Shown one piece after another: positions 22,846 to 59,389 of a DNA stretch of 64,000 nucleotides. The translations under genes and the position numbers were made by a program. Every line of letters begins with the position of its first letter. The first letter of the stretch is position 1. The notes under the pieces were generated by a model. That model was given only the letters and a program-made list of their open reading frames with translations. It ran no database searches and was not told the origin of the DNA. Source of the stretch: an uncultured Ignavibacteriales bacterium (lineage in GTDB: Bacteria > Bacteroidota > Ignavibacteria > T3Sed10-11); the NCBI GenBank assembly GCA_964495085.1, contig CAZBUK010000003.1, positions 4,528 to 68,527 on the forward strand. The letters are read 5' to 3'.

Positions 22846-23880
22846 CTATGTTCGCCGGGCTGCCGATGATTCCCGTATCACCAGTTCGGCATGCAGGACA
22901 ACATTCTCCACCGGCAGAGGCACCGGCGCCTGAATGTTTCTGATGAGTATCTCGGCAGCTTTCCTACCAAGCTCGCGCATCGGAGTGCGGATCGTTGTCA
23001 GCTTCAATGGTATACTCTTGGCAAAGGGAATATCATCGTTGCCGATAACGGAAATTTCATCCGGCACCGCGATCCTCAATTCTGTAAGCGCGGAGAGTAC
23101 GCCGAGTGCAACCAGATCGTTGTAGCAGACGATGGCAGTCGGATAATCCTCCCTGTGCCTGTTGCGGAAATACTCGAGACAGATCCGGTATCCGTCGATG
23201 AGATGTGCTCCGGTTGACACGATCATATCGTCCTTGAAAGCGAACGGACTCTCGCTGAAGGCCCTGCAAAAACCGTCGATGCGTTCGAACGTATGGGAGG
23301 CATGATCGGGACCTGCGAAGTGGACAATCCGTGAATGGCCGTTTTCAATCAGGTAGCGGATCGCATCCTTCATAGCCCGGTAATTGTCTATGCTCACGAC
23401 GTTCGCCTGAATTCCCTTAACGCTCTCGAGCAGAACGAAGGGGAAGTTGATCGTTTTTAGTGCGAACAGATGTTCTATTTCCGAGGTCCCTTCCAGTACC
23501 GGCGCGATAATAGCTCCCTTAATATCCCTTCCCGTAAAACAGTCGGTGATCTTCTCCTCGTGGTCATGATTCCCTTCGGAACTTGCCATATAGACCAGAT
23601 AGCCTTTACTCAAAGCATAATCCATGATCCCGAGAGCCATTGTGGTATAGAACGGATTATCGAGCTCGCGAATGAGGAGGCCTATGCTTTCGAGTTCGGG
23701 ACCATCCTTTCTGAGATTGCGGGCGCTCCCTCTCGGCCGGTAATTCAGGCTCTTTATGGTACGAAGTATGAGATCCCTGGTATCCGCATGCACACTATTT
23801 TTGCGATTTAGAACCGCTGACACCGTGCCCTTCGAAACGCCGGCCTTTCGGGCGACGTCGTTGATCGTTGTTTTCTTCAT
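22846..23880 (-). CDS. LacI-family transcriptional regulator (copy 2). It is a paralog of the LacI gene at 46197..47261.
   Basis: MKKTTINDVARKAGVSKGTVSAVLNRKNSVHADTRDLILRTIKSLNYRPRGSARNLRK is a LacI HTH, followed by a PBP-like core. It shares ~70% aa identity along its full length with the 46197 protein, and the recognition helix is nearly identical. Confidence 0.9.
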   Translation of the reverse strand: MKKTTINDVARKAGVSKGTVSAVLNRKNSVHADTRDLILRTIKSLNYRPRGSARNLRKDGPELESIGLLIRELDNPFYTTMALGIMDYALSKGYLVYMASSEGNHDHEEKITDCFTGRDIKGAIIAPVLEGTSEIEHLFALKTINFPFVLLESVKGIQANVVSIDNYRAMKDAIRYLIENGHSRIVHFAGPDHASHTFERIDGFCRAFSESPFAFKDDMIVSTGAHLIDGYRICLEYFRNRHREDYPTAIVCYNDLVALGVLSALTELRIAVPDEISVIGNDDIPFAKSIPLKLTTIRTPMRELGRKAAEILIRNIQAPVPLPVENVVLHAELVIRESSAARRT

Positions 23881-23998
23881 GCATATAGTCCCGAGGTATG
23901 AAACGTTTCCGTAGTGACTCTATATTTTGAGGATTTGAAGTTCAAATAAATCGATGAATTCCCGGTTTCTCCGGTATACAAAAGCCGGTCGTTTACGA

Positions 23999-25021: not shown

Positions 25022-25307
25022 GCTAATTGTCCCGGTACTATTCGATGTGAGAATAACAACGGGTGTAAGTTTAATATTTTTTATTTCAAATACAAATTCC
25101 AAACAAGCGGTATGTACGGGCTTCGACCGAAATTATGCGAAGACGAATAAAAAGAACGGATTCGGGGGCAAATTATTTCCCGATAAAAATTATTTGCATG
25201 ATGTTCGAAATTTCTATACCTTAAGTGTTATTTTGACACTTTCCATAATGCCGGATTACATGTTGCGCACATAATCCAATCCTTCAATCAAATCGATCGG
25301 ATCTAAT

Positions 25308-28225: not shown

Positions 28226-28945
28226 TTGACTACGGAAAGTTATTATAAAGACCATGACCGAATGCTGGTCGCGCTCGATTGCATTATTTTCGGTTTCGAC
28301 GGCGAAACGCTGAAGCTGCTTCTCATCAAGCGCGGGATGGAACCCGAGCGGGGGCGCTGGTCGCTGATGGGCGGATTTATGGACCGGAACGAGAGTCTCG
28401 ACGAAGCTGCCTCAAGAATCCTTTACACGCTCACCGGATTGCGGAACATCTACCTGGAGCAGTTATATGCGTTCGGAGAAGTCGGCCGCGATCCGGTAGA
28501 ACGTACGGTATCGGTTTCCTATTTCGCGCTCATCGATATACACCGGCACGATGCCGAGCTTGTCAAGCAGTACAGCGCGCGGTGGTTTCCCATCGATGAG
28601 CTGCCGGACCTTATCTTCGATCATCAGGAGATGGTGGAGAAGGCGAAAAAACATCTGCGATATAGAGCATGCTATCAGCCGGTCGGTTTCGAGCTGCTCC
28701 CTGAGAAATTCACCCTACGCGAGCTCCAGCAGCTTTACGAAAGCATATACGATACCTCATTCGACAAACGCAACTTCAGGCGAAGATTATTATCGATGGA
28801 TATACTGGTTAATACGTTGGAGAAGCAGAAGAAATATTCCCGTAAGGGGGCTTTTTTCTATAAATTCGACAGAGAAAAATACCGGGAGAAATCGATCCAG
28901 GGAGACAACCTGATATTCAATCCCATTAAGCACGATCATAGTTGA
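28226..28945 (+). CDS. NUDIX-hydrolase-domain transcriptional regulator (NrtR/AraR-like; NUDIX fold plus C-terminal winged helix)
   Basis: It has a NUDIX-like core (LLLIKRGMEPERGRWSLMGGFMDRNESLDEAASRILYTLTGL) with a degenerate NUDIX box. The basic C-terminal domain is LRELQQLYESIYDTSFDKRNFRRRLLSMDILV, typical of NrtR-family wHTH. It sits between abfA and araB, as the NUDIX-type AraR does in Bacteroides. The start is TTG at 28226, preceded by AGGAGA; an in-frame ATG lies at 28262. Confidence 0.7.
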   Translation: MTTESYYKDHDRMLVALDCIIFGFDGETLKLLLIKRGMEPERGRWSLMGGFMDRNESLDEAASRILYTLTGLRNIYLEQLYAFGEVGRDPVERTVSVSYFALIDIHRHDAELVKQYSARWFPIDELPDLIFDHQEMVEKAKKHLRYRACYQPVGFELLPEKFTLRELQQLYESIYDTSFDKRNFRRRLLSMDILVNTLEKQKKYSRKGAFFYKFDREKYREKSIQGDNLIFNPIKHDHS

Positions 28946-33734: not shown

Positions 33735-33797
33735 TGCTTCAAGCTTGACTTTCTAAAAATTATCATTTACCTTGAATCAGTTCAATTTTGGTTAAAT
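33735..33797 (+). promoter_or_regulatory. Promoter/operator-like element upstream of TonB-dependent receptor #1. It is a TTGACT hexamer followed by two direct copies of AATCAGTTCAAT spaced 21 bp apart.
   Basis: agcTTGACTttctaaaaattatcatttaccttgAATCAGTTCAATtttggttaAATCAGTTCAATcagcc lies in a 1.1-kb AT-rich non-coding region. The same hexamer and repeat recur at 50663-50724 upstream of TonB-dependent receptor #2. Confidence 0.5.
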
Positions 33798-34074
33798 CAG
33801 TTCAATCAGCCATACTCCATACACTACCTGATAGACATTTAGTCGATTTTTTGTTCTTCTTCATACCACCTTGTTGCACATCATCGATGAGGTTGAGTAT
33901 ATATAACCGGAATCTGTACGATAAATAACCGGACTATTCTCGAATGAAAGAACAGAGCCAAAATCGTTGTATCAATAACACCTCCGATATAACTTCCTCA
34001 AAATGTTCTCGAGCATCTCTTTGCGTCCCGTTCAGAGGTTCATTTAATTTATAGATACTCAGGAGAGGTATTTC

Positions 34075-37000
34075 ATGATTAATTCAAGATTCTACCTGTT
34101 TCCTTTTATCATATTGCTTTTGGGTCTCGGCATCACTTCAGCACAGGATCTCCCAACAGAACAGAGATTCGGACATCTGGATGGGGTCATAACGGACCTA
34201 TCAACAGGAGCGCCGCTCATAGGTGCTAACGTTATTCTCGAGGGCACAAGTTTAGGATCCGCCACCGATCAAAATGGTAAGTATAGTATTCTCAGAGTTC
34301 CCTCAGGATCGCATACACTTGCTGTTAGCTATATCGGTTATCAAAACGTGAAATTGGAGATCGATGTACCGGGCGGAGAAACGACCACCTACGATGTGTC
34401 GTTGGCATTTCATTATGTTGAAGGTGAAGTCGTTACAATAACCGCGCAAGCGAGCGGGCAAATGCAGGCAATAAACGAGCAACTAAGCGCCCGAACAATA
34501 AAAAACATTGTAGCCGCTGAACGTATTCGTGAGTTACCCGATGAGAATGCCGCTACGGCTCTCAGCAGGTTACCGGGGGTTTCTCTACAGGAAGGAGACA
34601 AAGTAGTCGTACGCGGGATTCAGGCAAAATTGAATACTGTTCTTATAAATGGCATACAACTTCCAGCGACTACAACAACAGACCGATCGACTAATCTCGG
34701 ATTTATCTCATCTAACATGCTTGCGGGGGTCGAGGTAACTAAAGCAGTTACTCCCGATATGGACGCAAATGCTATCGGCGGGGTCGTCAATCTTCGACTC
34801 AGGGAAGCTCCGGTTGACTGGCATTTCGATATATCGACGCAAGGTTCGTACAATACTCAGAATCGAACATATCCCGGGCAAAACTATCAGGTATGGATAA
34901 GCGGTAGCAACAGGTTTTTAGACAATAAGCTCGGAGTATTCTTACAGGGGAACAGTTACCGGCAGGATGCTGGCCCGGATATCGGCAATGTCGTATATGA
35001 GAGGATGGGGCCGGGACAGGATCGCCAATACGGCGAGGCGACTTGGGGTATGCAGCAGTTCGAATACATGAATGAGATCAACGTGACGGAACAATACGGG
35101 GGAAGTCTTATTCTCGATTTTGTCTTGCCCCGCGGCAAACTCATGCTGCAGAATACGTATGCATACACGAACCCCAACAACACGCAGCATATGGACCGGC
35201 TGGGAATCGGCGCCGGCTCCCTGCTAAACCGGCTCGAGCGCAACATTTTTTCTAAGCATGTCCTGGTTAACGCATTGCAGGGAGATAACAGGTTTGGTTC
35301 AATCAACGTTGATTATGGCGTATCGCATGCGCAATCCCGTCAGGACACAGATTTATGGTACTGGGTCGAGTGGAATCCGGTCGCGGCATTCGACGGATTC
35401 GGCGAAAGTGTACGGCGCTTCTTTACCCCGGAGGACGTGTACAAAATACAATACTACGATGACTTCAGGGCGGGACAGACAGTCAGGGACGGCAGTACGC
35501 GCAGCGAATTTTTTAAGGAGCGGCAGGTTGTTGCCCACATGAACGTGACCGTGCCCGTCACGATATCCAGCTTTATATCAGGGGATATCAAGACGGGAGG
35601 CAAAGTGAATTTCCTCGGCCGTGAAAACGATACACAGCGCTCTTTTGCGCGTCTTTCGGAGGGCGATAACAATCGGACCGCACGGGATTTTCTTGTGGAT
35701 GTGGTCGGCGTCGCCAATTGGAACAGTCCATTGCGGTTCCTGGACTTTCGCGACAACAACTTCGATAAGGGGCAGTATTTTCTTGGCGGAGACTATAACA
35801 TGCGGGATGTCCTCAGGACGGACTGGATGGATCAATACATGCGTCTGGCTCCGCCCGGTTGGCCCCGCGGAGAGCAGAGCCCCTTCAACCACATTGCCGA
35901 TTCCCGAAGGTTCGACTACGAAACAGAGGAACGACTTTCTGCAGGATACCTGATGGCGGATATGAGTATCGGCTCGCGGCTCACCGTTTTGGCCGGCGTT
36001 CGGTACGAGCATTTCCAAATGGACTATGAAGCCACGTACATGCTCGAGACGCACTTCGACGGGAATGGACGGGAGATCCTCGTCGAAGAACAAATACAAG
36101 CGATGGGAGAACCGCTCACCATTGCAAAGCGAAGTGTCGATCACTGGTTCCCGAATGTGCAAGTTCGGTACTGGATTACCAACTGGTTTGACGTGCGGCT
36201 TGCGTATACAAAAACGCTCTCGAGGCCCAACTATAATCAACTCATGCCCAATATTTTCGTCACGCAGGCCAGCGGAGAGGCGGGCAATCCGAATCTGCGG
36301 CCGACCGTGTCGGATAATTATGATATCTTCTTTTCATTTTCGAACAATACAGTAGGATTGTTTACCGTCGGCGGTTTTTATAAGCGCTTGGAGGACGTGG
36401 TTCTTCAGCAACGGATCCAACGAGACCTTCTTGATTTGTATGCCCCCGGGGAGATCTCATGGCCCGACCCTGCAACCACTCTTCCTAATGTTCGCTCCAC
36501 ACAATTAATTACAACCTTTGTGAATAATCCGCATCCGGCGATAGTACGGGGAATCGAATTCGACTGGCAGACGAATTTCTGGTATCTGCCGCAACCGTTG
36601 AATTCAATGGTCCTGAATATCAATTATACGCGTATCTTCTCTGAAATGGACTACAGGCAGATCATCAATATACAACGCACGGATCCCCTGACTGGTCTTC
36701 CCGTAGTCACAGTTATTGATACGATACTTACTGCCCGGCTCCTTCAGCAGGGGAATGACGTCGTCAATATCGCGGTGGGCGCCGATTATCGCGGTTTTTC
36801 CGCGAGGATATCCTTCCGGCTGCAGGGGGATGTGATCACCACTGTCGGCAACCGTCCCGAAGAAGATGCATTCACCGAAGATGTGTATTCATGGGATTTC
36901 ACGCTCAGGCAACGTCTACCGATCCAGGGTATGAGCGTATTTTTTAGCGGCATGAATATCACCCACGCGCCTACTAATGATTTCCGGCATTTCCGGCGGG

Positions 37001-37086
37001 ACAATGCCGACCCGACGATTGATAATCGAAGCCGTACCACGTTTAGTTCTCGTAGATTTGAGCTGGGATTGCGGTATAGTTTTTAA
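34075..37086 (+). CDS. TonB-dependent outer-membrane receptor/transporter (copy 1). It has a CarboxypepD_reg-like N-terminal domain, a plug and a 22-strand barrel.
   Basis: Signal peptide MINSRFYLFPFIILLLGLGITSAQ. The Cna-B/CarboxypepD_reg-like segment is GVITDLSTGAPLIGANVILEGTSLGSATDQNGKYSIL. Plug motifs are DENAATALSRLPGVSLQ and GIQAKLNTVLINGIQLP. It has a C-terminal barrel ending in an aromatic residue. An SD AGGAGAGG precedes the ATG. Confidence 0.85.
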   Translation: MINSRFYLFPFIILLLGLGITSAQDLPTEQRFGHLDGVITDLSTGAPLIGANVILEGTSLGSATDQNGKYSILRVPSGSHTLAVSYIGYQNVKLEIDVPGGETTTYDVSLAFHYVEGEVVTITAQASGQMQAINEQLSARTIKNIVAAERIRELPDENAATALSRLPGVSLQEGDKVVVRGIQAKLNTVLINGIQLPATTTTDRSTNLGFISSNMLAGVEVTKAVTPDMDANAIGGVVNLRLREAPVDWHFDISTQGSYNTQNRTYPGQNYQVWISGSNRFLDNKLGVFLQGNSYRQDAGPDIGNVVYERMGPGQDRQYGEATWGMQQFEYMNEINVTEQYGGSLILDFVLPRGKLMLQNTYAYTNPNNTQHMDRLGIGAGSLLNRLERNIFSKHVLVNALQGDNRFGSINVDYGVSHAQSRQDTDLWYWVEWNPVAAFDGFGESVRRFFTPEDVYKIQYYDDFRAGQTVRDGSTRSEFFKERQVVAHMNVTVPVTISSFISGDIKTGGKVNFLGRENDTQRSFARLSEGDNNRTARDFLVDVVGVANWNSPLRFLDFRDNNFDKGQYFLGGDYNMRDVLRTDWMDQYMRLAPPGWPRGEQSPFNHIADSRRFDYETEERLSAGYLMADMSIGSRLTVLAGVRYEHFQMDYEATYMLETHFDGNGREILVEEQIQAMGEPLTIAKRSVDHWFPNVQVRYWITNWFDVRLAYTKTLSRPNYNQLMPNIFVTQASGEAGNPNLRPTVSDNYDIFFSFSNNTVGLFTVGGFYKRLEDVVLQQRIQRDLLDLYAPGEISWPDPATTLPNVRSTQLITTFVNNPHPAIVRGIEFDWQTNFWYLPQPLNSMVLNINYTRIFSEMDYRQIINIQRTDPLTGLPVVTVIDTILTARLLQQGNDVVNIAVGADYRGFSARISFRLQGDVITTVGNRPEEDAFTEDVYSWDFTLRQRLPIQGMSVFFSGMNITHAPTNDFRHFRRDNADPTIDNRSRTTFSSRRFELGLRYSF

Positions 37087-46054: not shown

Positions 46055-46114
46055 TTGACTTTTCTTATATTATATTGTAGATTGAAATGATTAAAATTGT
46101 ATTGAATCATTTCA
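46055..46114 (+). promoter_or_regulatory. TTGACT hexamer plus an 11-bp inverted repeat TTGAAATGATT-N10-AATCATTTCAA upstream of LacI copy 3
   Basis: tatcTTGACTtttcttatattatattgtagaTTGAAATGATTaaaattgtatTGAATCATTTCAAaaa. The half-site AATCAtTTCAA resembles the AATCAgTTCAAT repeats upstream of both TonB-dependent receptors. Confidence 0.45.
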
Positions 46115-46196
46115 AAAACAGCTCCCGTTCGTTGGATATATTCAAACTGATTTACGAAATCTTGATTTATTCTCCCCCTTCTTCAGGAGGTTTGAC

Positions 46197-47261
46197 ATGA
46201 AAAAGGTGACCATTGATGATATAGCCCGCGAAGCAGGCGTATCAAAGGGCACTGTGTCTGCCGTTATTAATCAGAAAAACACCGTAAATTCCGAAACCCG
46301 TGAAATTGTTCTCGATACGATGAAGCAGTTGAATTACAGACCGAAGGGAAGCGCCCGAAATCTACGGAGGGTTAAAAAAGGATATGCAAGTATCGGACTG
46401 CTCGTCCGGGAACTTGACAATCCCTTTTATACAACGCTCGCATTGGGAGTTATGGAGTACGCCATCAGCAAAGGCTATCTGGTATTCATCGCCAGTTCCG
46501 AAGGCGATCATAACTCCGAGGATAAGATCACTGACAGTTTTGCGGTAAGAGATATCAAAGGTGCAATCATTGCACCGGTTCTCGAAGGTACGGCGGAAAT
46601 TGAACATCTCTTCGAATTGAAAATGATCAATTTCCCATTCGTCCTCCTCGAAAGCGTCAAAGGCATACAAGCGAATGTAGTGAGCATTAATAATATAAAG
46701 GCGATGAAGGAAGCGATCAAATATCTCATGGATAACGGACATTCCAGGATCGTTCATTTCGCCGGTCCAAAGCATGCCTTTCACACTTATGAGCGAATCG
46801 ACGGATTCAGAAGAGCTTACAGCGAGAGCCGTTTCGCCTACAGCAACGATATGATCGTTCCGACCGGCGCCCTCCTCGAAGACGGGCATCGAACATGTCA
46901 CGATTACTTCAGGAATCGAAGCAGGGAAGATTATCCGACTGCCATTGTCTGTTATAACGATCTCGTTGCCCTCGGCGTCATGACGGCGTTGGCGGAACTC
47001 GATATCCAGGTTCCCGACGAGATCTCCGTCATCGGCACGGACGATATACCGTTCTCGAAGAATATACCGGTTAAACTAACTACCATACAGGCGCCCATTC
47101 GAGAGCTCGGACGACGCGCCGCGGAGATACTGATCAGAAATATTGAATCCTCCGAGTCTCTACCGATCGAGAACATCGTACTGAACACAAATTTAGTGAT
47201 ACGTGAATCAACCAGAGCGTTAAATCCGGCCCGTATGGGGATGATGGTCGAAGGCGCTTGA
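46197..47261 (+). CDS. LacI-family transcriptional regulator (copy 3). It is a paralog of the LacI gene at 22846..23880.
   Basis: MKKVTIDDIAREAGVSKGTVSAVINQKNTVNSETREIVLDTMKQLNYRPKGSARNLRR. The sugar-binding core is nearly collinear with copy 2. A strong SD CAGGAGG precedes the ATG. It lies upstream of xylB-xylA. Confidence 0.9.
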   Translation: MKKVTIDDIAREAGVSKGTVSAVINQKNTVNSETREIVLDTMKQLNYRPKGSARNLRRVKKGYASIGLLVRELDNPFYTTLALGVMEYAISKGYLVFIASSEGDHNSEDKITDSFAVRDIKGAIIAPVLEGTAEIEHLFELKMINFPFVLLESVKGIQANVVSINNIKAMKEAIKYLMDNGHSRIVHFAGPKHAFHTYERIDGFRRAYSESRFAYSNDMIVPTGALLEDGHRTCHDYFRNRSREDYPTAIVCYNDLVALGVMTALAELDIQVPDEISVIGTDDIPFSKNIPVKLTTIQAPIRELGRRAAEILIRNIESSESLPIENIVLNTNLVIRESTRALNPARMGMMVEGA

Positions 47262-47556
47262 ACTGCGGCCCAATCGACTCACTGAAGTTCTTCTAAAATA
47301 TATCCAGGGCGGGAGTCAATTTCCTGCTACCACTTCGCCGGTACCACGGAAAGAACCGCTCAACGCAAAGCACGCTCTACCTTTACCGGCATCCTACGTC
47401 GACGTCTTGTAACTCCCGGCTCTTCGTGGGCTCGCTCCATCAGCGAATATAGCTTGCATGACCCGGATACATTCCTTATCGGATCCCGCAAGTACTCAAC
47501 AAAATATCAATCGGAGAACCTTTCATCCTATTCCCGCAGGCATCGTTCCCCGAAGA

Positions 47557-49083
47557 ATGACCAGACAAATGCTCTCACTCGGCCTTGACATAGGAAGTTC
47601 ATCCATAAAAGCTGCACTGATAGATATCGATTCCGGCGCTCTTGTCGCCCAGGATTCATATCCGAAAGAAGAAATGCTCATTTCGGCTCCGCGTCCCGGA
47701 TGGGCAGAACAGGATCCCCAGGTCTGGTGGGAATGTGTCGGGATCCTCGTGCACCGTCTCAGGCAATTGCCGGGTGTTGCCGCAGAAAAGATCGCCTGCA
47801 TCGGTATCTCCTACCAGATGCACGGTTTGGTGCTGGTCGACGATCTGCAACGAGTGCTCAGACCTTCGATTATATGGTGCGACAGCAGGGCGGTTCAAAA
47901 CGGAATCAGAGCGCTCGATGTGCTCGGAGAGGAATTCTGCCAATCCCATCTCCTCAATTTCCCCGGAAATTTCACCGCGGCAAAATTCGGATGGGTAAAA
48001 GAGAACGAGCCGGAGATAGCAAGCCGGGTATCGAAGATGATGCTTCCCGGCGATTACATTGCGATGCGTCTGACCGGTGAGGTTACAACGACAATATCGG
48101 GATTATCAGAAGGAATCTTATGGGATTTTACGAAAGATAAAGTGTCCCCTTCGGTCTTGGAGCACTTCGGACTCACTGAGAACATTCTTCCGAAGATCGT
48201 TCCAACCTTCTCAGTTCAGGGAACATTGACGAAGAGCGCAGCCGCGGAACTCGGCCTCGATCCGGCGACGGTCGTCTCCTACAGGGCAGGTGACCAGCCG
48301 AATAATGCACTCTCGCTTAATGTGCTGGAACCGGGAGAAGTTGCGGCAACGGGAGGAACATCCGGTGTGGTTTACGGCGTCACCGATAACCGGCTCCCCG
48401 ATCCGAGATCCCGGGTCAACATTTTCGCGCACGTGAACCATACCGAAAAGCAGCAACGACTGGGTATTCTCCTCTGCATAAACGGAACGGGTATCCTGAA
48501 CGCGTGGCTCAAACGGAATATCGCAGGCGGTGCGGGGTACGATGCGATGAACATTGAGGCAGGTGCGGTTCCTGTCGGATCGGAGGGCTTGACCGTCCTT
48601 CCGTTCGGGAACGGAGCCGAGAGAGTGCTTGAAAATGCAAATATCGGAGCTCACGTGCTCGGACTTGATCTGAACAGGCATTCGAGGGCTCATCTCCTGA
48701 GAGCCTCTCAGGAAGGAATCGCATTCTCGTTCAGGTACGGTATTGATATCATGCAGGAACTCGGACTCCAGGTGTCGGTTATCAGAGCCGGGAGGGAGAA
48801 CCTTTTCCTGAGTCCGTTGTTCCGTGAAATTCTTTCAACAGTTACCGGCTCCGAGATAGAATTGTTCGAAACGAATGGAGCTCAGGGTGCGGCCCGGGGT
48901 GCCGCGGTCGGCGCCGGTTATATCAGATCCCTGGAAGATCTCTCCGGCACCTATTCCGTATCGGAAAGGATCACCCCGGTTTCTTCGATGGCGGAACCCG
49001 CACATCAGGCTTACGAGTTGTGGCTGGAGCGCCTTTCGGGGATTATGGTGGATTCTTCAAAACTATCAAGTGTGCATGTTTAA
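47557..49083 (+). CDS. xylB: Xylulokinase (FGGY family)
   Basis: FGGY N-terminal motif [23 protein letters not shown]. Motifs [15 protein letters not shown] and C-terminal [11 protein letters not shown] are typical of D-xylulokinases. Its stop lies 11 nt before xylA copy 2. The track ORF is 47458..49083; I start it at the ATG at 47557. Confidence 0.8.
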
Positions 49084-49094
49084 CGAGGGCTGCA

Positions 49095-50423
49095 ATGAAA
49101 CAGACAGTTAAAGAGACAGAATATTTTCCCGGGATCGAACGCATAACGTTCGAGGGGAGCGAGTCGGATAATCCGTTCGCATTTAAATGGTACGACGAAA
49201 ATGCCGTCGTGGCAGGCCGGACAATGAAAGAATATTTCCGGTTTGCGGTTGCCTACTGGCATTCGTTTCGCGGAACCGGTCAGGATCCGTTCGGCATGGG
49301 AACCCGATGTATGCCCTGGAATAAATCCGGGGATCCTCTGAGCCGCGCGAAATCGACGATGGATGCGGCATTCGAGTTTATTACCAAGCTCGGAGCGCCG
49401 TTCTACTGCTTCCACGATTTCGATATCATAGACGAAGGGAGCAGTATCGAGGAATCGGATCATCGGATCAAAACGCTCATCGATTATGCGAAGGAGAAGC
49501 AGCAGGAAACGGGAGTCCGGCTCCTGTGGGGAACCGCCAATCTATTTTCGCACCCGCGCTATATGAACGGAGCCGCGACGAATCCCGATTTCAACGTTCT
49601 CTCGTATGCGGCCGTTCAGGTCAAACGCGCGATAGATTTCACCTACGAGCTCGGCGGAGAAAATTATGTGTTCTGGGGGGGGCGTGAAGGATACACCTCG
49701 CTTCTGAACACGAATATGAAGCGGGAAAAGGATCACCTTGCCGGATTCCTCTCGCTGGCGCGCGATTACGCCCGGAAGATCGGTTTCGACGGCACCCTGC
49801 TGATCGAACCGAAACCGATGGAACCGTCAAAGCATCAGTATGATTACGATGTCGAGACGGTTATCGGCTTCCTGCGCGCGTACGGACTCGATACAGATTT
49901 CAAGCTCAACATCGAGGTCAACCACGCGACGCTTGCCGGACATACCTTCCAGCACGAGATCCAGTGCGCCGTAGATGCCGGCATGCTGGGAAGCATCGAT
50001 GCCAACCGCGGCGACTATCAGAACGGATGGGATACGGATCAGTTTAGCGTCAATCTGTTTGAGCTTGTCCAGGCAATGCTCATCGTCCTCGAAGCAGGCG
50101 GTTTCGGAAAGGGCGGTGTGAACTTCGACGCTAAGGTGCGCCGGACATCGACCGACCCGGAGGATCTGTTCATCGGCCACATAACGGGTATGGATTCGTT
50201 CGCACGTGCACTCCTTGTAGCCGATAGAATACTGAGAGAATCGCCGTATAAAACCCTCCGTCGCGATCGATACAGCAGTTACGACAGCGGTGAGGGGAAG
50301 CGGTTCGAGAATGGGGAACTCAGTCTTGAAGACCTGAGTCGGATGGGTAACCTCAACGGAGAGCCGAAACAGATCAGCGGAAAACAGGAATTACTCGAAC
50401 GTATTATCACTATGTTTATGTGA
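49095..50423 (+). CDS. xylA: Xylose isomerase (class II), copy 2
   Basis: It carries the same XylA signature blocks as copy 1 ([68 protein letters not shown]). Identity to copy 1 is about 75% aa. The track ORF is 49020..50423. I start it at the ATG at 49095, which is preceded by GAGGG. Confidence 0.93.
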
Positions 50424-50662
50424 TGAATTGAAACTTTGAGGGAATGCGGGATTTCTGGAGCCTCGATAGATCGGTCTATTGAATCCCGTCGAGAGAAGTC
50501 TCGTTTGTGACCTGTGTCCTGATTTTATCGGTGGAAATCGAATATATCTGCCGGAGAGGAACGACATTCATCGGGATTGGTGAGCATTTTATCCTATACG
50601 ATCGCCTTACGATCATTGTGGATATGATATGGATTCTCAGGAATAAAATAAAAAAAGGGAGC

Positions 50663-50724
50663 TTGACTTTTTAATAATCTCAATATATATTGAACTAGTT
50701 CAATTCATTTTTAATCAGTTCAAT
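50663..50724 (+). promoter_or_regulatory. Sigma70-like promoter TTGACT-17-TATATT with two downstream operator-like repeats (AACTAGTTCAAT and AATCAGTTCAAT, 20 bp apart) upstream of TonB-dependent receptor #2
   Basis: gagcTTGACTttttaataatctcaataTATATTgAACTAGTTCAATtcatttttAATCAGTTCAATatattc. TTGAACTAGTTCAA is itself a perfect 14-bp palindrome. The receptor start lies about 490 nt downstream, giving a long leader. Confidence 0.55.
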
Positions 50725-51213
50725 ATATTCTAGTCAAGTCTCTCTCAGATTTCTAACAGAGAAGCTGCCAATCGTCTGAACCGGCGTAAATCCCAATCGC
50801 TCAGGACTAAATATCGAGATGAGAAAGCATGATCCCTGACTCATTATCGGCAGCGCTCCTTAAATTAATATTCCCGGCGACGCCTAGTTCGGTACGCTGT
50901 CTTCATTGCCGCAACCGGATCGCCGGATATCCCGGCCGGCTGCACAAGTAATAAAACCAGAGGAGATAATCTGTGTTACGGATACATAACATCTCTGTAC
51001 GGTTATCTTCCTTTCAGACAGAACATTTCTTTTCACTGAGAAATTTTTCCTCAATCGAAATAAACCATAATCGTTAGCTCGAATTTATGAACTATCGGAA
51101 GCGCGACCTCTGGCGCATTTGATCCGCTCCACAGGTTCCTCTGTTACTAAAAATGTAAAATAAATAATCGATATCGAAGTACAAAGCGTTACAATAATTT
51201 GCAGGAGGGAAAG

Positions 51214-54200
51214 ATGTTACCTCAGATCAATACCCGCGGGAATCGGTATAGTGTATTTCTCAGTCTCTTGCTTATTTTCGTATTTCAAGCCGGCATATTC
51301 GCCCAATCCGGTACCATTCGTGGGCAGGTGATCGATAACGAGACGAGAGCCCCTTTAGCCGGCGCTAATATCATCATACAGGGTACGAGTCTGGGTGCGG
51401 CAACGGATCTCAATGGGCACTATGTAGTTCGCAACGTTCCGGCTGGGTCGGTTACGATTGTTATCTCCTATATCGGATATGACAGAATCACGATGGAGAT
51501 TACCGTTACCGCCAATAGAATCATAGAGCAGGACTTTGCTCTTCGCTCGACCTTAATCGAAGGAGAAACGATCGTCATTACGGCTCAGGGTGAAGGGCAA
51601 GTATCGGCCATTCAACAACAGATCGCCTCGAATAAGATAGTGAATATCGTATCCGAGGCAAGGATCCAGGAACTTCCGGATTTCAACGCCGCTCAGGCAA
51701 TAGCCCGCTTGCCCGGAATCTCGACATTGAAAAGCTCGGGCGAGGACAACAAGGTCGTCATCAGAGGATTGGCTCCTCAATTCAACGCAATCGAAGTCGG
51801 AGGAGTTAAGCTCGGCGCTACCGGTAGTACGCAAATCGGAGCAACCTCTCAGGGAGGTACCGCCGGTAACGTCAGCAGCGACAGGAGCGTCGATCTCTCG
51901 CTGATTACGCCCTATATGATAAAATCCATATCCCTCTATAAAGCAATCACCCCCGATATGAATGCAAATGTCATCGGCGGGTTGGTGAATATAGAATTGA
52001 GGGAAGCTCCGTCCGGATTTCGCGGCGACGTTCTCTGGCAATCCGGCTACACGCAAAAGAGCGGCCAATATGGGAACTATAGAACCGTCGTATCTGCAAG
52101 CAACAGATTCTTTAACGACCGTCTCGGCGCATACGTCCTGCTGAATGCAGAGTCCTATGATCGTAACGCGGATAATATGAGCGCCGGTTATCGTATCGTT
52201 CAGCATTTCCGCGGAGAGGGCAGATTTTCCGACGTAGCAGTTGATAATGTACAGCTGAGTCGGTTCATTGAAAACAGGCAGCGCTACGGGGCTAACCTGA
52301 TCCTCGACTACCCGCTTCCCAACGGCAGTATTAAGTTGATCAATATGTTTGCACGTCTGCGTTCTGATTTCAACGATCACAGGATGGTAATGAACTACAC
52401 TTCAAATAACATTACCTTCAATTACAGAGAAGGGGTCAATCACATCGACATGGTATTGAATTCGTTGAAATTCGAATATGATCTCGGGAGGGTGCTCGTA
52501 GATGTGACGGCGGCAAATAATTCTTCCAGAAATGACCTACCCGAAACTCCCCGCCTCAATTATTTACTGGCTGGAGGGATAGTTAAAACCGGAGAGACAC
52601 CGCGAAACACCGTTCCCGAAGAATTGACACAATTTATCGCCTTCGAAGAACGTGGGGGAGCAGATCAGACGGTTCTGACACAAATAGACCTCTTCAGTTC
52701 CAAATACAGAGAAACCAATCGTTCGGTGAACGCAAATTTCACTCTGCCCTTTGCCCTGAGTACATCTTTCTCCGGATATTTCAAAGCTGGCGGTGTTTTT
52801 AGGTACGAAAACCGTACGATGGACCAGGAAACCCCTTATGTCGGTATGGGACTCACGAGCGATATTCAGCGGCGGATGATGGATGCCCTGATGGCTGAGT
52901 TCAATGTGCAATTACCATCTGGACAAGGGCTCTTTCCCGCCTCGACGTTTTCTTCCCGTAATTCGGACCTCCTTAAACCCTTTTTAAATGATAAGTTCGG
53001 ACGCTTTTTGTGGGCCGGTGACCCCACCATACCGGTAGGATTCGCACGGTACCTGTCGGCGCATCGGGAGGAATTTGCTGGTGTGGGCTCCGGACCGGAG
53101 GGTGCGGGTGGATGGTATGACGGGCCATTCCAACAGCTCGCCAACGATTTTGAATATACAGAAAGGTATTATGCCGGTTACTTGATGACCGAAATAAATT
53201 TCCTCAATTTTATGATAGTGGGCGGCGTTAGATATGAGTTAAATAAATCCGAATTTTTTGCATACAATATGGTTGATGCCCGTAATCCGCCTACTCAGGT
53301 ATGGACGGAGACTACCGTATATCCGGAGAACGAATTCTGGTTGCCGATGGTACAGGTCCGGTATAAGCCGTTTGGCTGGGGAGATGTCCGGTATGCGTAC
53401 ACTCAAACACTCGCCCGCCCGGACTTTCACATGCTCTCGCCGCGTGTTTCCTTTTCATACGATCACCGCAACCTCTGGACCGGCAATCCGGATCTTAAAC
53501 CGGCGGAGGCATTAAATCACGATCTTATAGTGACCTTGTACAGCAACCGGTTAGGATTATTCTCTGTCGGAGGATTCCACAAAACGGTATCGAACTTCTC
53601 CTATTATACGCAGTATGCGGTGTATGAGGCGAGCCGGATGCGGCCCGGACTCGAAAGCGTTGAATCGATCACCGAAAGAACCGGCAACACACCGCAGGTA
53701 GGCGCTATTTTAAATACTTACGTCAATTCGGCTTACGACGCAACGGTGAAAGGAATCGAGGTAGATTTTCAAACCCGACTCTGGTATTTGCCCGGCCTGT
53801 TGAAAGGGATTGTGCTCGGGGCGAATTTTACCACTATTCAATCCAAAGCCACATATCCGTGGAGAGACACCTTTACCATACTGAATCCCAACCCTCCGCC
53901 CAGAAACATTCCCGACGTAGTCGACAGCACTCGTACGGGCCGGTTGATCAACCAGCCGGATAATATCGTAAATACATATATCGGTTACGACTACATGGGA
54001 TTTTCCACCCGTTTCTCATATACCTTCATCGAAAACGCCATGAGCGGCATCGGAAGGTTCGACGAACAGGACGGATTTACGAGGGATTACCACAGGCTTG
54101 ATATCTCCGCTCGGCAGAAATTACCCTTTATGGGAATGGAAGTATACTTAGACCTTAATAACCTTAATGCGGCAACCAATGTTTCGGCACAGAAAACGAT

Positions 54201-54267
54201 CGGAGGATTTACGAATCAGCAGTTATACGGTCTCACTGCGAACCTCGGATTCCGTTTGAGGTTATAA
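51214..54267 (+). CDS. TonB-dependent outer-membrane receptor/transporter (copy 2, paralog of the receptor at 34075..37086)
   Basis: Signal peptide plus a CarboxypepD_reg-like segment GTIRGQVIDNETRAPLAGANIIIQGTSLGAATDLNGHYVV. Plug motifs are DFNAAQAIARLPGIS and GLAPQFNAIEVGG. Its domain order is collinear with copy 1. The track ORF starts with TTG at 51199. I start it at the ATG at 51214, which is preceded by GCAGGAGGG. Confidence 0.85.
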   Translation: MLPQINTRGNRYSVFLSLLLIFVFQAGIFAQSGTIRGQVIDNETRAPLAGANIIIQGTSLGAATDLNGHYVVRNVPAGSVTIVISYIGYDRITMEITVTANRIIEQDFALRSTLIEGETIVITAQGEGQVSAIQQQIASNKIVNIVSEARIQELPDFNAAQAIARLPGISTLKSSGEDNKVVIRGLAPQFNAIEVGGVKLGATGSTQIGATSQGGTAGNVSSDRSVDLSLITPYMIKSISLYKAITPDMNANVIGGLVNIELREAPSGFRGDVLWQSGYTQKSGQYGNYRTVVSASNRFFNDRLGAYVLLNAESYDRNADNMSAGYRIVQHFRGEGRFSDVAVDNVQLSRFIENRQRYGANLILDYPLPNGSIKLINMFARLRSDFNDHRMVMNYTSNNITFNYREGVNHIDMVLNSLKFEYDLGRVLVDVTAANNSSRNDLPETPRLNYLLAGGIVKTGETPRNTVPEELTQFIAFEERGGADQTVLTQIDLFSSKYRETNRSVNANFTLPFALSTSFSGYFKAGGVFRYENRTMDQETPYVGMGLTSDIQRRMMDALMAEFNVQLPSGQGLFPASTFSSRNSDLLKPFLNDKFGRFLWAGDPTIPVGFARYLSAHREEFAGVGSGPEGAGGWYDGPFQQLANDFEYTERYYAGYLMTEINFLNFMIVGGVRYELNKSEFFAYNMVDARNPPTQVWTETTVYPENEFWLPMVQVRYKPFGWGDVRYAYTQTLARPDFHMLSPRVSFSYDHRNLWTGNPDLKPAEALNHDLIVTLYSNRLGLFSVGGFHKTVSNFSYYTQYAVYEASRMRPGLESVESITERTGNTPQVGAILNTYVNSAYDATVKGIEVDFQTRLWYLPGLLKGIVLGANFTTIQSKATYPWRDTFTILNPNPPPRNIPDVVDSTRTGRLINQPDNIVNTYIGYDYMGFSTRFSYTFIENAMSGIGRFDEQDGFTRDYHRLDISARQKLPFMGMEVYLDLNNLNAATNVSAQKTIGGFTNQQLYGLTANLGFRLRL

Positions 54268-56296: not shown

Positions 56297-59284
56297 ATGG
56301 AAAGAATTATACATTCGATTCCTATTTTCAAGAACCTGCTATTTACATTCCTGGCGCTTTCATTCGTAATAGGTATTGGTGTTTCAGTGCAGGCCCAGGA
56401 ACCTGAGCTGCCGATTCTTATAGATGAATGGGGCTTTATCCCCGGCAGAGTCAATGGATGGCAGATATCGGTCGGAGAACCGGGTAATGTGGATCTCACT
56501 ACCGACACCGGATTTACGGGTGAATGGGCAGGGGTACGCGGGGAATTTGGTCCGGTTACCGTAGAGGAGGGTCAAGCTCTTATACTCTCAGGGAAACTGG
56601 ATTTTGTCGGTCAGGGACCGAGCGCCTGGAGCGCTCTCCGCTACGGAGTATTCCGCCAGGATAGCGCAGGGGTGGTACAGTACGCCGGTACAGACTCATC
56701 TCTCTGGTCGGGCAGTGAAGGTTTTTCATATGGCTATATGTTAACAAACCACAGCGGGACGCAGGATCGCGTCTCCTGGTCGAACGGGAACGGAAACATC
56801 GGTGTCCATCATGGAGGGGTATGGCTCAGCTCGTTTAATAACGATCCTCGATCGCTTGGTGTAATAGATCAGCGACTCTTCCGCGCCGAAGCTCCGGAGG
56901 GAATGTATGATTTCGCTGTTTCAATTCATACGCAGGATGACGGCAACAATCAGGTCCGGTTCTACCTGATTCATGAAGACGGAGAATACTGGTTCGGCGG
57001 CCTTGTGGTAGATACAACGGGAGTGCCGACGAGTGAGTATAATAGTTTCTGTTTCGCGTTTAACAACAGGAACGAAAACCTGACTGAAGTGAAGTTAATT
57101 GATGTGTCGGTCAATCTCGACGACCCCATTACGCTCCCCGAACCGCCGCTCGAGATGCCGCCGCATGACATCGGCAGAATATTCAATGAAAACCGTCTAT
57201 TTGAATTATCTTCTCCCGGTCCGGCAAGCGGCCCGTTCTGGTATTTTGCAACCGGGAATACGGTCGGTTACGATGTCGTGTATGATGACGCGCAGACCGG
57301 TGACCGTTCGGTAAGGATCGAATTCGACGATGCTCACGAGGGCAATAGCTGGGATATCGAAGCGGTAAACGAACCGATTTATCCTGGGGAAAATGACATT
57401 ATTCGTGCCAGCGTATGGCTCAAAGCCGACACCGATGAGCGTGTGGCAAATCTGTACATCGGTTTGCCGGATGATTGTGATTTTGAGCGCGTATCGTCAC
57501 ATCAAGTAACGCTGACTGAAGACTGGGCTATGTATCAGATACCCGACTATGTGGTCCAGACGAACGATGCGGGCTGTACGGTGAGGTTTGGAATAGAACT
57601 AAACTATGAAGAGAACATCGGAGGCGTAATCTCCCTCGACAATGCGATAGTGAGGAAAGTAGGGGAACACGATCCGACTAAAGTAGCCACCTGGGGTTTT
57701 ATCCCCGGCAGAGTCAATGGATGGCAGATATCGGTCGGAGAACCGGGCAATGTGGATCTCACTACCGACACCGGATTTACGGGTGAATGGGCAGGAGTAC
57801 GCGGGGAATTTGGTCCGGTTACCGTAGAGGAGGGTCAAGCTCTTATACTCTCAGGGAAACTGGATTTTGTCGGTCAGGGACCGAGCGCCTGGAGCGCTCT
57901 CCGCTACGGAGTATTCCGCCAGGATAGCGCAGGGGTGGTACAGTACGCCGGTACAGACTCATCTCTCTGGTCGGGCAGTGAAGGTTTTTCATATGGCTAT
58001 ATGTTAACAAACCACAGCGGGACGCAGGATCGCGTCTCCTGGTCGAACGGGAACGGAAACATCGGTGTCCATCATGGAGGGGTATGGCTCAGCTCGTTTA
58101 ATAACGATCCTCGATCGCTTGGTGTAATAGATCAGCGACTCTTCCGCGCCGAAGCTCCGGAGGGAATGTATGATTTCGCTGTTTCAATTCATACGCAGGA
58201 TGACGGCAACAATCAGGTCCGGTTCTACCTGATTCATGAAGACGGAGAATACTGGTTCGGCGGCCTTGTGGTAGATACAACGGGAGTGCCGACGAGTGAG
58301 TATAATAGTTTCTGTTTCGCGTTTAACAACAGGAACGAAAACCTGACTGAAGTGAAGTTAATTGATATATCAGTCAATCTCGACGATCCGATTACGCTCC
58401 CGAACCCGCCGCTCGAGACCCCGACGCACGATATCGGGAGAATTTTCAATGAAAACCGCAACTTTGAGCTCTCCAGCCCCGGGGTAACGACCGGCGAGCC
58501 GTTCTGGTCGTTCAACATAACACAAGGCGGAGCCAATGCAGAGTTCGCGATCGAACATGGTGATGCTCAGAACGGCGACCGCGCTCTCAGGATCGACTTC
58601 GGTACCTGGAACGGCGCAAGCGACGTATGGCATGTAGAGGCAGTGAACGAACCGTTCTATCCGGAAGTCGGCGACACAATCCGTGCTACGGTATGGCTTA
58701 AAGCGGATACCGACACACGTGTCGCTCGTTTATACCTTGGCTTGCCGGGAGGCAGCTTCCAACGAGTCCCAGATTGGGGTATGGAAGAAACTGTTACTCT
58801 GACAACAGAGTGGGCTATGTACTCCTTCCCCGATTACATGGTTATTCAACGCGATGTCAACCATGCTCCCGATGGTGCAATGCGATTTGGTATCGAATTG
58901 AATCTGGAGGCGAATGACGGCGGTATGATCTGGATTGACAACGCAATCGTGAGAGTCGTGGGCAAAATGCCTGTCTCGGTAGAAGTCGACCCGACTATAC
59001 CGCTCACCTTCGCACTCGAGCAGAACTATCCCAATCCGTTCAACCCGACGACGCAGATCCGGTTTTCACTCCCCGATCATGCGGACGTCATACTCGAGGT
59101 GTTCGATATCCTCGGCAGACGGGTAGCGACCCTCATCAACAACGAGAACTACGCACCCGGACGCTATACGGTAACATGGGACGCGACGAACAAATCGGGC
59201 TTCTCGATCAGCAGCGGTATGTATATCTATCGCATCCAGGCGGGAAGTCATGTAGACATAAAACGGATGATGTTCCTTAAGTAA
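56297..59284 (+). CDS. Secreted modular protein (995 aa). It has a signal peptide, two tandem ~421-aa units (each a conserved ~230-aa module plus a CBM4/9-like carbohydrate-binding module) and a T9SS C-terminal domain.
   Basis: Signal MERIIHSIPIFKNLLFTFLALSFVIGIGVSVQAQ. Unit boundaries are at WGFIPGRVNGWQISVGEPGNVDL (aa 45 and aa 466). The CBM-like ends are ...SLDNAIVRKVG and ...WIDNAIVRVVG. The CTD is NYPNPFNPTTQIRFSLPDHADVILEVFDILGRRVATL...GMYIYRIQAGSHVDIKRMMFLK. An SD GGAGGTAA precedes the ATG. Confidence 0.75.
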   Translation: MERIIHSIPIFKNLLFTFLALSFVIGIGVSVQAQEPELPILIDEWGFIPGRVNGWQISVGEPGNVDLTTDTGFTGEWAGVRGEFGPVTVEEGQALILSGKLDFVGQGPSAWSALRYGVFRQDSAGVVQYAGTDSSLWSGSEGFSYGYMLTNHSGTQDRVSWSNGNGNIGVHHGGVWLSSFNNDPRSLGVIDQRLFRAEAPEGMYDFAVSIHTQDDGNNQVRFYLIHEDGEYWFGGLVVDTTGVPTSEYNSFCFAFNNRNENLTEVKLIDVSVNLDDPITLPEPPLEMPPHDIGRIFNENRLFELSSPGPASGPFWYFATGNTVGYDVVYDDAQTGDRSVRIEFDDAHEGNSWDIEAVNEPIYPGENDIIRASVWLKADTDERVANLYIGLPDDCDFERVSSHQVTLTEDWAMYQIPDYVVQTNDAGCTVRFGIELNYEENIGGVISLDNAIVRKVGEHDPTKVATWGFIPGRVNGWQISVGEPGNVDLTTDTGFTGEWAGVRGEFGPVTVEEGQALILSGKLDFVGQGPSAWSALRYGVFRQDSAGVVQYAGTDSSLWSGSEGFSYGYMLTNHSGTQDRVSWSNGNGNIGVHHGGVWLSSFNNDPRSLGVIDQRLFRAEAPEGMYDFAVSIHTQDDGNNQVRFYLIHEDGEYWFGGLVVDTTGVPTSEYNSFCFAFNNRNENLTEVKLIDISVNLDDPITLPNPPLETPTHDIGRIFNENRNFELSSPGVTTGEPFWSFNITQGGANAEFAIEHGDAQNGDRALRIDFGTWNGASDVWHVEAVNEPFYPEVGDTIRATVWLKADTDTRVARLYLGLPGGSFQRVPDWGMEETVTLTTEWAMYSFPDYMVIQRDVNHAPDGAMRFGIELNLEANDGGMIWIDNAIVRVVGKMPVSVEVDPTIPLTFALEQNYPNPFNPTTQIRFSLPDHADVILEVFDILGRRVATLINNENYAPGRYTVTWDATNKSGFSISSGMYIYRIQAGSHVDIKRMMFLK
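56429..58954 (+). repeat. Intragenic tandem duplication with a 1263-bp period, two copies. The first ~670 bp of each copy are about 99% identical at the nucleotide level, and the remainder is strongly diverged.
   Basis: Copy 1 starts at tggggctttatccccggcagagtcaatggatgg (56429) and copy 2 at tggggttttatccccggcagagtcaatggatgg (57692). I saw only about 4 substitutions over ~670 bp. The antisense track ORFs 56835..57017 and 58098..58280 are identical (60 aa each), and the track ORFs 56384..56575 and 57599..57838 share a 58-aa N-terminus. Past ~57100 / ~58363 the copies fall to roughly 50% aa identity. Confidence 0.9.
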
Positions 59285-59352: not shown

Positions 59353-59360
59353 CATCTGAA

Positions 59361-59389
59361 GAGGAGGAACCGTTCCTCCTCTTTTTTTT
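59361..59389 (+). terminator. Second tandem terminator hairpin
   Basis: GAGGAGGAAccgTTCCTCCTC followed by TTTTTTTT. Confidence 0.6.

Follow-up and report, generated by a model that had tools for sequence, protein, structure and literature searches.

The closest described relatives of the system considered here are regulons of sugar-responsive repressors, most of them from the LacI family. In a survey of 1303 LacI-family factors, even palindromes were found in 1251, a central CG in 1173, and a different or degenerate centre in 78, while autoregulation was noted in 72%; approximately 20% of the regulated operons had tandem sites upstream, the spacing of which peaked at 13, 22, and 32 bp (PMC4052901). 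RafR of Enterobacteriales and ScrR of Burkholderiales possess only double sites, 21-22 bp apart, which were read as a sign of obligatory cooperative binding (PMC4052901). The fruBKA promoter region carries two operators for the LacI-family regulator Cra/FruR (PMC4050194; PMC10760178), and the two Cra operators of E. coli fruB, TGAAACGTTTCA and TGAATCGTTTCA, are bound cooperatively (PMC4050194). The LacI-type XylR of Xanthomonas and Caulobacter binds a 14-bp palindromic xyl-box, TGGTAGCGCTAACA, before xylose and xylan genes (PMC10380989). TonB-dependent transporters for xylan uptake in Xanthomonas campestris are under a LacI-family regulator, and hybrid two-component systems have also been reported as regulators of such xylan systems (PMC12125979). 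In Bacteroides, genes for arabinose and xylose utilization are under the NrtR-family proteins XylR and AraR, whose operators occur in tandem (PMC4666351). Here we describe a promoter-operator cassette found in a 64-kb stretch (64,000 nt; hereafter the window) of contig CAZBUK010000003.1 from an Ignavibacteriota-like metagenome-assembled genome (MAG). Pfam and NCBIfam scans characterized the window as a hemicellulose and pentose utilization region, and the cassette precedes a lacI-xylB-xylA operon as well as two operons headed by TonB-dependent receptors.

We consider it very likely, from the sequence, that these cassettes are paired LacI-family operators set in sigma-70-type promoters, with an autoregulated LacI-family protein, LacI#3 (46197-47261), as the most likely repressor. 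A repeat search identified a unit of 64-65 nt that is present three times in the window, all in register and ungapped, with pairwise in-register identities of 65-75%. The common layout consists of CTTGACTTT, a 17-nt spacer, a TAnnTT hexamer, and two 14-mers of the form TTGAA-N4-TTCAA, termed O1 and O2. In all three cassettes, O1 begins on the final two bases of the -10 hexamer, and O2 starts exactly 20 bp after O1. The original prediction, made from the window alone, had described a TTGACT hexamer followed by direct repeats of a 12-mer at the two receptor loci; this 12-mer, AATCAGTTCAAT, is the right-hand portion of the 14-mer. The strings of its proposed promoter, TTGACT-17-TATATT, were found at 50663-50691 of the second receptor locus, and the sequence there also agreed with repeats lying 20 bp apart and with a first copy embedded in the perfect palindrome TTGAACTAGTTCAA. 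At the first receptor locus, the spacing had been given as 21 bp and the end as 33797, where the sequence gives 20 bp, equal to the second locus, and 33806. The expectation that the motif should recur upstream of other genes was borne out by the third cassette, before lacI-xylB-xylA, which had been missed. The cassettes and their predicted elements, with scores from a position weight matrix, are given below.

33742-33806, plus strand: promoter-operator cassette 1, upstream of TonB-dependent receptor 1
33742-33752: AGCTTGACTTT of cassette 1, with -35 hexamer TTGACT at 33745-33750, a 17-nt spacer, and -10 hexamer TACCTT at 33768-33773
33775-33786 and 33795-33806: two copies of the 12-mer AATCAGTTCAAT in cassette 1, by sequence match
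33772-33785: O1 of cassette 1, TTGAATCAGTTCAA, both 5-bp arms perfect (0 mismatches), 21.6 bits, overlapping the last two -10 bases and the predicted start site
33792-33805: O2 of cassette 1, TTAAATCAGTTCAA, 1 mismatch, 18.5 bits
46052-46116, plus strand: promoter-operator cassette 3, upstream of the lacI-xylB-xylA operon (lacI at 46197)
46055-46060: -35 hexamer TTGACT of cassette 3, followed by a 17-nt spacer and -10 hexamer TAGATT at 46078-46083
46082-46095: O1 of cassette 3 (lacI promoter), TTGAAATGATTAAA, 19.6 bits
46102-46115: O2 of cassette 3 (lacI promoter), TTGAATCATTTCAA, both arms perfect, 21.5 bits
50660-50724, plus strand: promoter-operator cassette 2, upstream of TonB-dependent receptor 2
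50660-50670: AGCTTGACTTT of cassette 2, with TTGACT at 50663-50668, a 17-nt spacer, and -10 hexamer TATATT at 50686-50691
50693-50704 and 50713-50724: the 12-mers AACTAGTTCAAT and AATCAGTTCAAT of cassette 2, 20 bp apart
50690-50703: O1 of cassette 2, TTGAACTAGTTCAA, a perfect 14-bp palindrome, 24.2 bits, the top score of the window
50710-50723: O2 of cassette 2, TTTAATCAGTTCAA, found by palindrome search and matrix scan

We assessed how these sites compare with chance occurrence in the window. The 12-mer was matched 19 times with at most 2 mismatches, compared to 6.9 expected matches, and none of 100 shuffles reached 19; TTGAANNNNTTCAA with at most 1 mismatch was matched 17 times, compared to 2.6 expected, which again was reached in 0 of 100 shuffles. 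The matrix scan of the 64 kb returned six sites at 18.5-24.2 bits and a runner-up at 11.4 bits, with the matrix having been built with these six sites included. Exact copies of CTTGACTTT were encountered only at the three cassettes. Among intergenic sites upstream of the glycoside hydrolase (GH) gene GH31, LacI#1, xylA#1, the arabinose operon, GH10, and GH51, none scored above 10.1 bits. A third possible operator in the lacI promoter, TTGGATATATTCAA at 46132-46145, scored just 5.6 bits, was unconserved in orthologs, and was not counted.

The elements had been described as direct repeats. Judged by their sequence, they are instead tandem 14-bp palindromes, in which an asymmetric site occurs in both orientations. 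One window site is a perfect 14-bp palindrome and the others carry 0-1 arm mismatches. Across the related loci fetched via homologs of the LacI#3 protein, and hence independently of the motif (the protein-anchored set), O1 has an invariant left arm and O2 a right arm conserved in 13 of 14, and the central four bases vary. The receptor-2 promoters of the window, L006, and L009 have TTTAATCAGTTCAA as O2, and the lacI promoters of L006 and L009 have its exact reverse complement, TTGAACTGATTAAA, as O1. The use of one asymmetric site in both orientations fits a two-fold-symmetric dimer and not head-to-tail binding. The family consensus, TTGAAnCGnTTCAA, is an even-length palindrome of conserved inverted repeats, as found for LacI/GalR-type regulators. 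Operators in the distant loci read TTGAACCGTTTCAA, TTGAACCGATTCAA, or TTGAAACGTTTCAA with a central CG, and the relatives L001, L012, L014, L026, and L034 carry this central CG in the form TTGAACCGTTTCAA or TTGAAACGTTTCAA.

The cassette architecture is conserved in related loci and linked to the clade of LacI#3. The nearest genome records were Ignavibacteriota MAGs and one record labeled Bacteroidota, and a genome-collection scan with the LacI protein returned 3 close loci, of which L003 begins at the gene and is without upstream DNA. A cassette was found upstream of every LacI#3 ortholog with upstream DNA (L001, L002, L006, L009, L012, L013, and L014), and receptor-2 orthologs with an upstream cassette were found in L006, L009, L012, and L013. 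The spacing between O1 and O2 is 20 bp throughout the protein-anchored loci, and the lacI-xylB-xylA order is kept in L006, L009, L012, L013, L022, and L029. When the cassettes were compared with flanks of 65 nt on each side, the ungapped identity of the three window copies was 0.69 inside the cassette versus 0.26 on either side, and that of the related loci, taken pairwise, was 0.71-0.76 in the cassette versus 0.28-0.33 in the flanks. When receptor-2 upstream regions are aligned, there is almost no variation in the cassette columns and the leader decays fast; outside the cassette, the upstream regions of the two window receptors do not align with each other. This footprint bears out the conservation in orthologous regions that had been anticipated.

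An exact-pattern scan of metagenome contigs for the same architecture returned 14 loci. Six of these lie directly upstream of a LacI#3 homolog of 69-80% identity (L017, L018, L019, L022, L025, and L029), with xylB-xylA following the homolog in L019, L022, and L029. In L026 the cassette is located upstream of a GH31-like gene, with a LacI#3 homolog nearby on the other strand, and in L027 it is located upstream of a related receptor. In the other 6 loci the extended CTTGACTTT context is missing, and these appear to be matches by chance. A second cassette of L018, CTTGAATCAGTTCAA and then TTAAATCAGTTCAAT, was found upstream of a receptor-1 ortholog of 62% identity. It was further noted that the receptor-2 ortholog of L032 (80% identity) has a CTTGACA-17-TATGCT promoter with no TTGAA-N4-TTCAA operators (5630-6001), and that the adjacent xylB-xylA genes are divergent from the receptor with no lacI beside them. 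This joint absence of the operators and of lacI fits the assignment of the sites to LacI#3.

Several further observations were made on promoters of this kind. L033 (5325-6001) contains a receptor-2 ortholog of 67% identity with a CTTGACA-17-TATGCT promoter, a long leader, and no TTGAA-N4-TTCAA operators. The same type of operator is used in other layouts by more distant relatives: in L034 (5524-5579), TTGAAACGTTTCAA and TTGAAACATTTCAA are found 42 bp apart upstream of a receptor, and in L035 (1764-1797) a 20-bp pair with the same promoter geometry is located after lacI and before a GH3-MFS-receptor operon. In the receptor-2 promoter of the window, AGTCAAG, the reverse complement of the -35 sequence CTTGACT, is present at 50732-50738, just 3' of O2. 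Similar inverted -35 copies follow the operators in L014 and L015, where divergent promoters may have the operators in common and use these copies as -35 boxes.

The genes that bear on the choice of regulator and on the target operons are listed below.

34075-37086, plus strand: TonB-dependent receptor 1, which opens target operon 1
46197-47261, plus strand: LacI#3, LacI-family regulator with Pfam LacI helix-turn-helix and Peripla_BP domains
47458-49083, plus strand: open reading frame (ORF) of xylB (xylulokinase; XylB was the best match), downstream of lacI in the same direction
49020-50423, plus strand: ORF of xylA (xylose isomerase, 695 bits), downstream of lacI
51214-54267, plus strand: TonB-dependent receptor 2, which opens target operon 2 (AGGAGG precedes the ATG at 51214)
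3649: LacI#1, a LacI-family regulator elsewhere in the window
22846-23880, minus strand: LacI#2, a LacI-family paralog of LacI#3
28226-28945: NrtR/AraR-type (NUDIX) regulator, inside the arabinose operon
10464-12569: hybrid histidine kinase, without a DNA-binding domain

LacI#3 is the best candidate for binding the cassettes: one of them lies in its own promoter, and in the related loci examined its orthologs remain beside the cassette. A linked LacI#3-type gene was found in 7 protein-anchored and 6 pattern-anchored loci, in keeping with the usual linkage of LacI/GalR-type regulator genes to their sites. The protein falls below every NCBIfam equivalog cut-off, with sub-threshold matches to RbsR, PurR, and CcpA only, and the nearest solved structures were generic LacI, CcpA, and RbsR proteins. 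LacI#1 has a different recognition helix, VSTMTISRVLN. No cassette or paired operators were found in the promoter of LacI#2; a single GGAAACGTTTCA at 23899-23910, just upstream of the LacI#2 ATG, is unconserved in L031 and was set aside. The original prediction had named the three LacI proteins, the NUDIX regulator, and the partner of the histidine kinase as possible binders, a list that can be narrowed on this evidence to LacI#3, with LacI#2 possible, while the NUDIX/NrtR protein and the kinase found no support.

From the sequence we infer the promoter activity, start position, binding, cooperativity, sign of regulation, and effector of a repressor switch in which the three cassettes would act as sigma-70-type promoters, each with a composite LacI-family operator. 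O1 is predicted to lie at approximately -8 to +6, across the -10 region and the start, and O2 at approximately +13 to +26, with transcription predicted to begin near 33780, 46090, and 50698. The 20-bp step between them corresponds to approximately two helical turns and would place both sites on nearly the same helix face. Without inducer, two repressor dimers would sit side by side on O1 and O2, probably cooperatively, and would prevent the polymerase from forming an open complex or from escaping the promoter. This would hold for the two TonB-receptor operons and for the lacI-xylB-xylA operon, so that the repressor would also act on its own promoter. A hemicellulose-derived inducer, most plausibly xylose or a xylo-oligosaccharide, would then release the repressor. 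The earlier suggestion of a shared promoter with an operator for a dimeric or tetrameric regulator over the start, which would place both receptor loci in one regulon, is supported in its core by this analysis.

Several points weigh against this assignment or narrow it. The central step of the window operators is CA, TG, or TA and never the CG that is usual in the family, and the 20-bp spacing differs from the 21-22 bp of the reported obligate double sites. More than 75% of LacI-family sites lie 30-140 nt from the start codon (PMC4052901), and the sites of the receptor promoters, at approximately 300 and 500 nt from their start codons, fall outside this range. LacI#2 shares 73% identity with LacI#3 and the recognition helix VSKGTVSAV(I/L)N is common to both, so LacI#2 may also bind the cassette sites, with possible cross-talk between the paralogs; the assignment to LacI#3 therefore rests on gene position and autoregulation logic only. 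The proposed effector is a guess from gene content, and the target operons also hold a GH9 enzyme and unknown proteins. The operator scan covers the 64-kb window of the source genome, and the regulon is described here for that stretch.

Other regulators were weighed against a LacI-family repressor. True direct repeats bound head-to-tail, for example by a response regulator that works with the hybrid histidine kinase, would explain why the asymmetric centre TCAG has the same orientation in O1 and O2 of the receptor promoters and why AATCAGTTCAA recurs as a direct repeat in the window, L006, L009, L013, and L018. However, the same asymmetric site is inverted in the lacI promoters, so its orientation is not fixed, and both 5-bp arms are conserved as inverted repeats, with one site being a perfect palindrome. 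The kinase has no DNA-binding domain, and no DNA-binding response regulator was found in the window. Across the syntenic loci examined, the cassette keeps the LacI gene as its neighbor but no gene for a kinase or a response regulator; we regard head-to-tail binding as very unlikely. The window does contain an NrtR/AraR-type regulator, and the NrtR-family proteins of Bacteroides, XylR and AraR, combine pentose genes with tandem sites (PMC4666351), which would favor binding by the NUDIX protein at 28226-28945. Its relatives nevertheless use 21-bp semipalindromes with a tandem gap that is usually 3 bp, where the window has 14-mers with a gap of 6 bp. The arabinose operon that contains the NrtR gene has no TTGAA-N4-TTCAA upstream and carries its own conserved 19-bp palindrome, AAGTGTTATTTTGACACTT, instead. 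In L013, L022, and L029 the cassette is present with lacI as the sole neighboring regulator gene, and taken together this leaves the NrtR protein a highly improbable binder.

The 5-N4-5 layout and similar half-sites are also what would be expected if the operators were CRP/FNR-type sites bound by a global activator. Such sites share the 5-N4-5 layout, and the FNR consensus is TTGAT-N4-ATCAA. In all protein-anchored cassettes, though, position 5 is always A and position 10 always T (TTGAA/TTCAA), not T and A. Activator sites are located at -41.5 or -61.5, while sites over -10/+1 and at approximately +13 to +26 are repressor positions, and it is the latter that the cassette sites are predicted to occupy. 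No CRP/FNR-family protein was found among window ORFs of at least 150 aa, and the tight linkage is to the lacI gene; an activator of this family thus has a very slight probability. Lastly, the cassettes could be identical by descent without having a function, either as a promoter copied with the paralogous receptors or as a small mobile cassette, and the receptors are indeed paralogs whose cassettes, together with the third, are 65-75% identical in register. Yet the receptors share only 31% protein identity and the similarity stops sharply at the cassette edges (26% identity in the flanks), which also answers the concern, raised with the original prediction, that the loci might belong to a larger, recently duplicated segment. 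An unrelated operon follows the third copy, and the cassette is kept at orthologous positions where the LacI proteins are only 69-86% identical and the surrounding non-coding DNA is randomized. Neither terminal inverted repeats nor target-site duplications were seen around the cassette. Descent without function is already contradicted by the footprinting and has an almost negligible probability.

The receptor leaders were also examined. They extend over approximately 295 nt for receptor 1 and approximately 515 nt, to the ATG at 51214, for receptor 2, so that earlier estimates of about 310 and 490 nt were roughly right but not exact, and the leader length is conserved in relatives, the operator-less loci included. 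A tctgtacg segment common to both leaders had been pointed out; it is at chance level, with the leaders sharing 3 eight-mers compared to 2.5 expected (P = 0.43) and the 8-mer found in 0 of the 6 orthologous leaders examined. An Rfam scan of the leaders gave no match at the gathering score, and with relaxed thresholds the receptor-1 leader again had none, while the receptor-2 leader had a single match, on the opposite strand and at chance level. The folding-energy z-score of -0.6, from a single-sequence fold, was no better than shuffles, and RNAalifold on seven leaders gave no consensus structure. In most receptor leaders, and in both paralog types, a moderately conserved block consisting of G[AT]GATGAGA, 8-14 nt, and CACATAyC was found 80-160 nt 3' of O2, at the following positions.

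50816-50860: GATGAGA block in the receptor-2 leader of the window
33884-33915: GATGAGA block in the receptor-1 leader of the window
Approximately 14305 of L006, 14336 of L012, 14348 of L013, and 3063 of L018: GATGAGA block in related loci

The block was also considered as a conserved upstream ORF, which was rejected given that the frame of the window copy is closed by a stop after 6 codons and that the ATG is absent from L009. Long leaders (approximately 300-670 nt) are kept even in relatives without operators, and they might carry a second control layer, centered on the GATGAGA block, beside an obligately paired LacI operator; we consider this unlikely. Under that reading the block could be a new cis-acting RNA or protein-binding element of Ignavibacteriota TonB-receptor operons.

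In operon 1, receptor 1 is followed by genes for a protein with a type IX secretion system (T9SS) tail, a peptidyl-prolyl isomerase, an unknown protein, and a GH9 enzyme, and the operon extends to 45985. In operon 2, receptor 2 is followed by two genes for T9SS-tailed proteins and a strong terminator at 59358-59384, with a GH10 xylanase and a GH51 arabinofuranosidase encoded just downstream. The gene for a T9SS-tailed protein of 995 aa (56297-59284) contains an internal direct duplication of 719 nt (56421-57140 and 57684-58403; 98% identical, period 1263 nt), and a whole domain has therefore been duplicated recently within it. The window encodes two xylose isomerase paralogs, at 4923-6278 and 49020-50423. 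The former adjoins a GH31 enzyme and LacI#1; with no TTGAA-type operator located upstream, it is probably part of a different regulon. The arabinose operon contains genes for an epimerase, GH51, the NrtR-type regulator, a ribulokinase-like FGGY kinase, and an AraD-type class II aldolase. The palindrome AAGTGTTATTTTGACACTT, at 25223-25241, lies between this operon and the divergent URO-D/LacI#2 genes. L031 has it in nearly identical form, and it is therefore a candidate operator for the NrtR/AraR-type regulator.

These results offer a concrete hemicellulose-uptake regulon for Ignavibacteriota, with one candidate repressor, a 34-bp composite operator, and three target operons; our literature search found no described transcription-factor regulon for this phylum. 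They suggest that TonB-receptor loci with T9SS-tailed partners can be wired to a cytoplasmic sugar repressor, and the motif is usable for annotating related MAGs. The understanding of how LacI-family repressors work is unchanged. Read from sequence, the cassette is a conserved paired LacI-family operator in a fixed promoter arrangement, that is, an ordinary sugar-repressor switch in a little-studied phylum, which would not surprise a specialist.

Among the described systems, RafR and ScrR resemble the window system in having only paired sites approximately two helical turns apart, while their spacing (21-22 bp versus 20 bp), sugars, and taxa differ. The Cra operators TGAAACGTTTCA and TGAATCGTTTCA have nearly the same core as the window operators. 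However, the Cra regulon concerns fructose and central metabolism, unlike the window regulon, and LacI#3 is not a Cra ortholog (E of approximately 5e-14 for Cra structures compared to approximately 1e-38 for CcpA), so that a half-site type common to the LacI family is the simplest explanation of the likeness. The Bacteroides regulators AraR and XylR share with the window the control of pentose and hemicellulose genes, including outer-membrane transporters, as well as tandem operators and membership of the Fibrobacterota-Chlorobiota-Bacteroidota (FCB) group. These regulators are Nudix proteins with a winged helix that bind 21-bp semipalindromes (PMC4666351), in contrast to the 14-mers of the window, where the NrtR-type regulator belongs to the separate arabinose operon. 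The closest functional analog is the XylR regulon of Xanthomonas and Caulobacter crescentus, in which xylose is the inducer and in which, as in the window, xylose catabolism is joined with TonB-dependent uptake and xylan degradation. Unlike the sites of the xyl-box regulon, the window sites are always paired at 20 bp in a fixed promoter geometry, and its receptor operons, from an Ignavibacteriota-like organism, encode T9SS-tailed proteins. The half-sites of the xyl-box TGGTAGCGCTAACA and the window operator TTGAAnnnnTTCAA also differ, and the system is therefore best regarded as a functional analog of the XylR regulon and not as a member of it, the likeness being one of function that does not equate the two regulators as orthologs.

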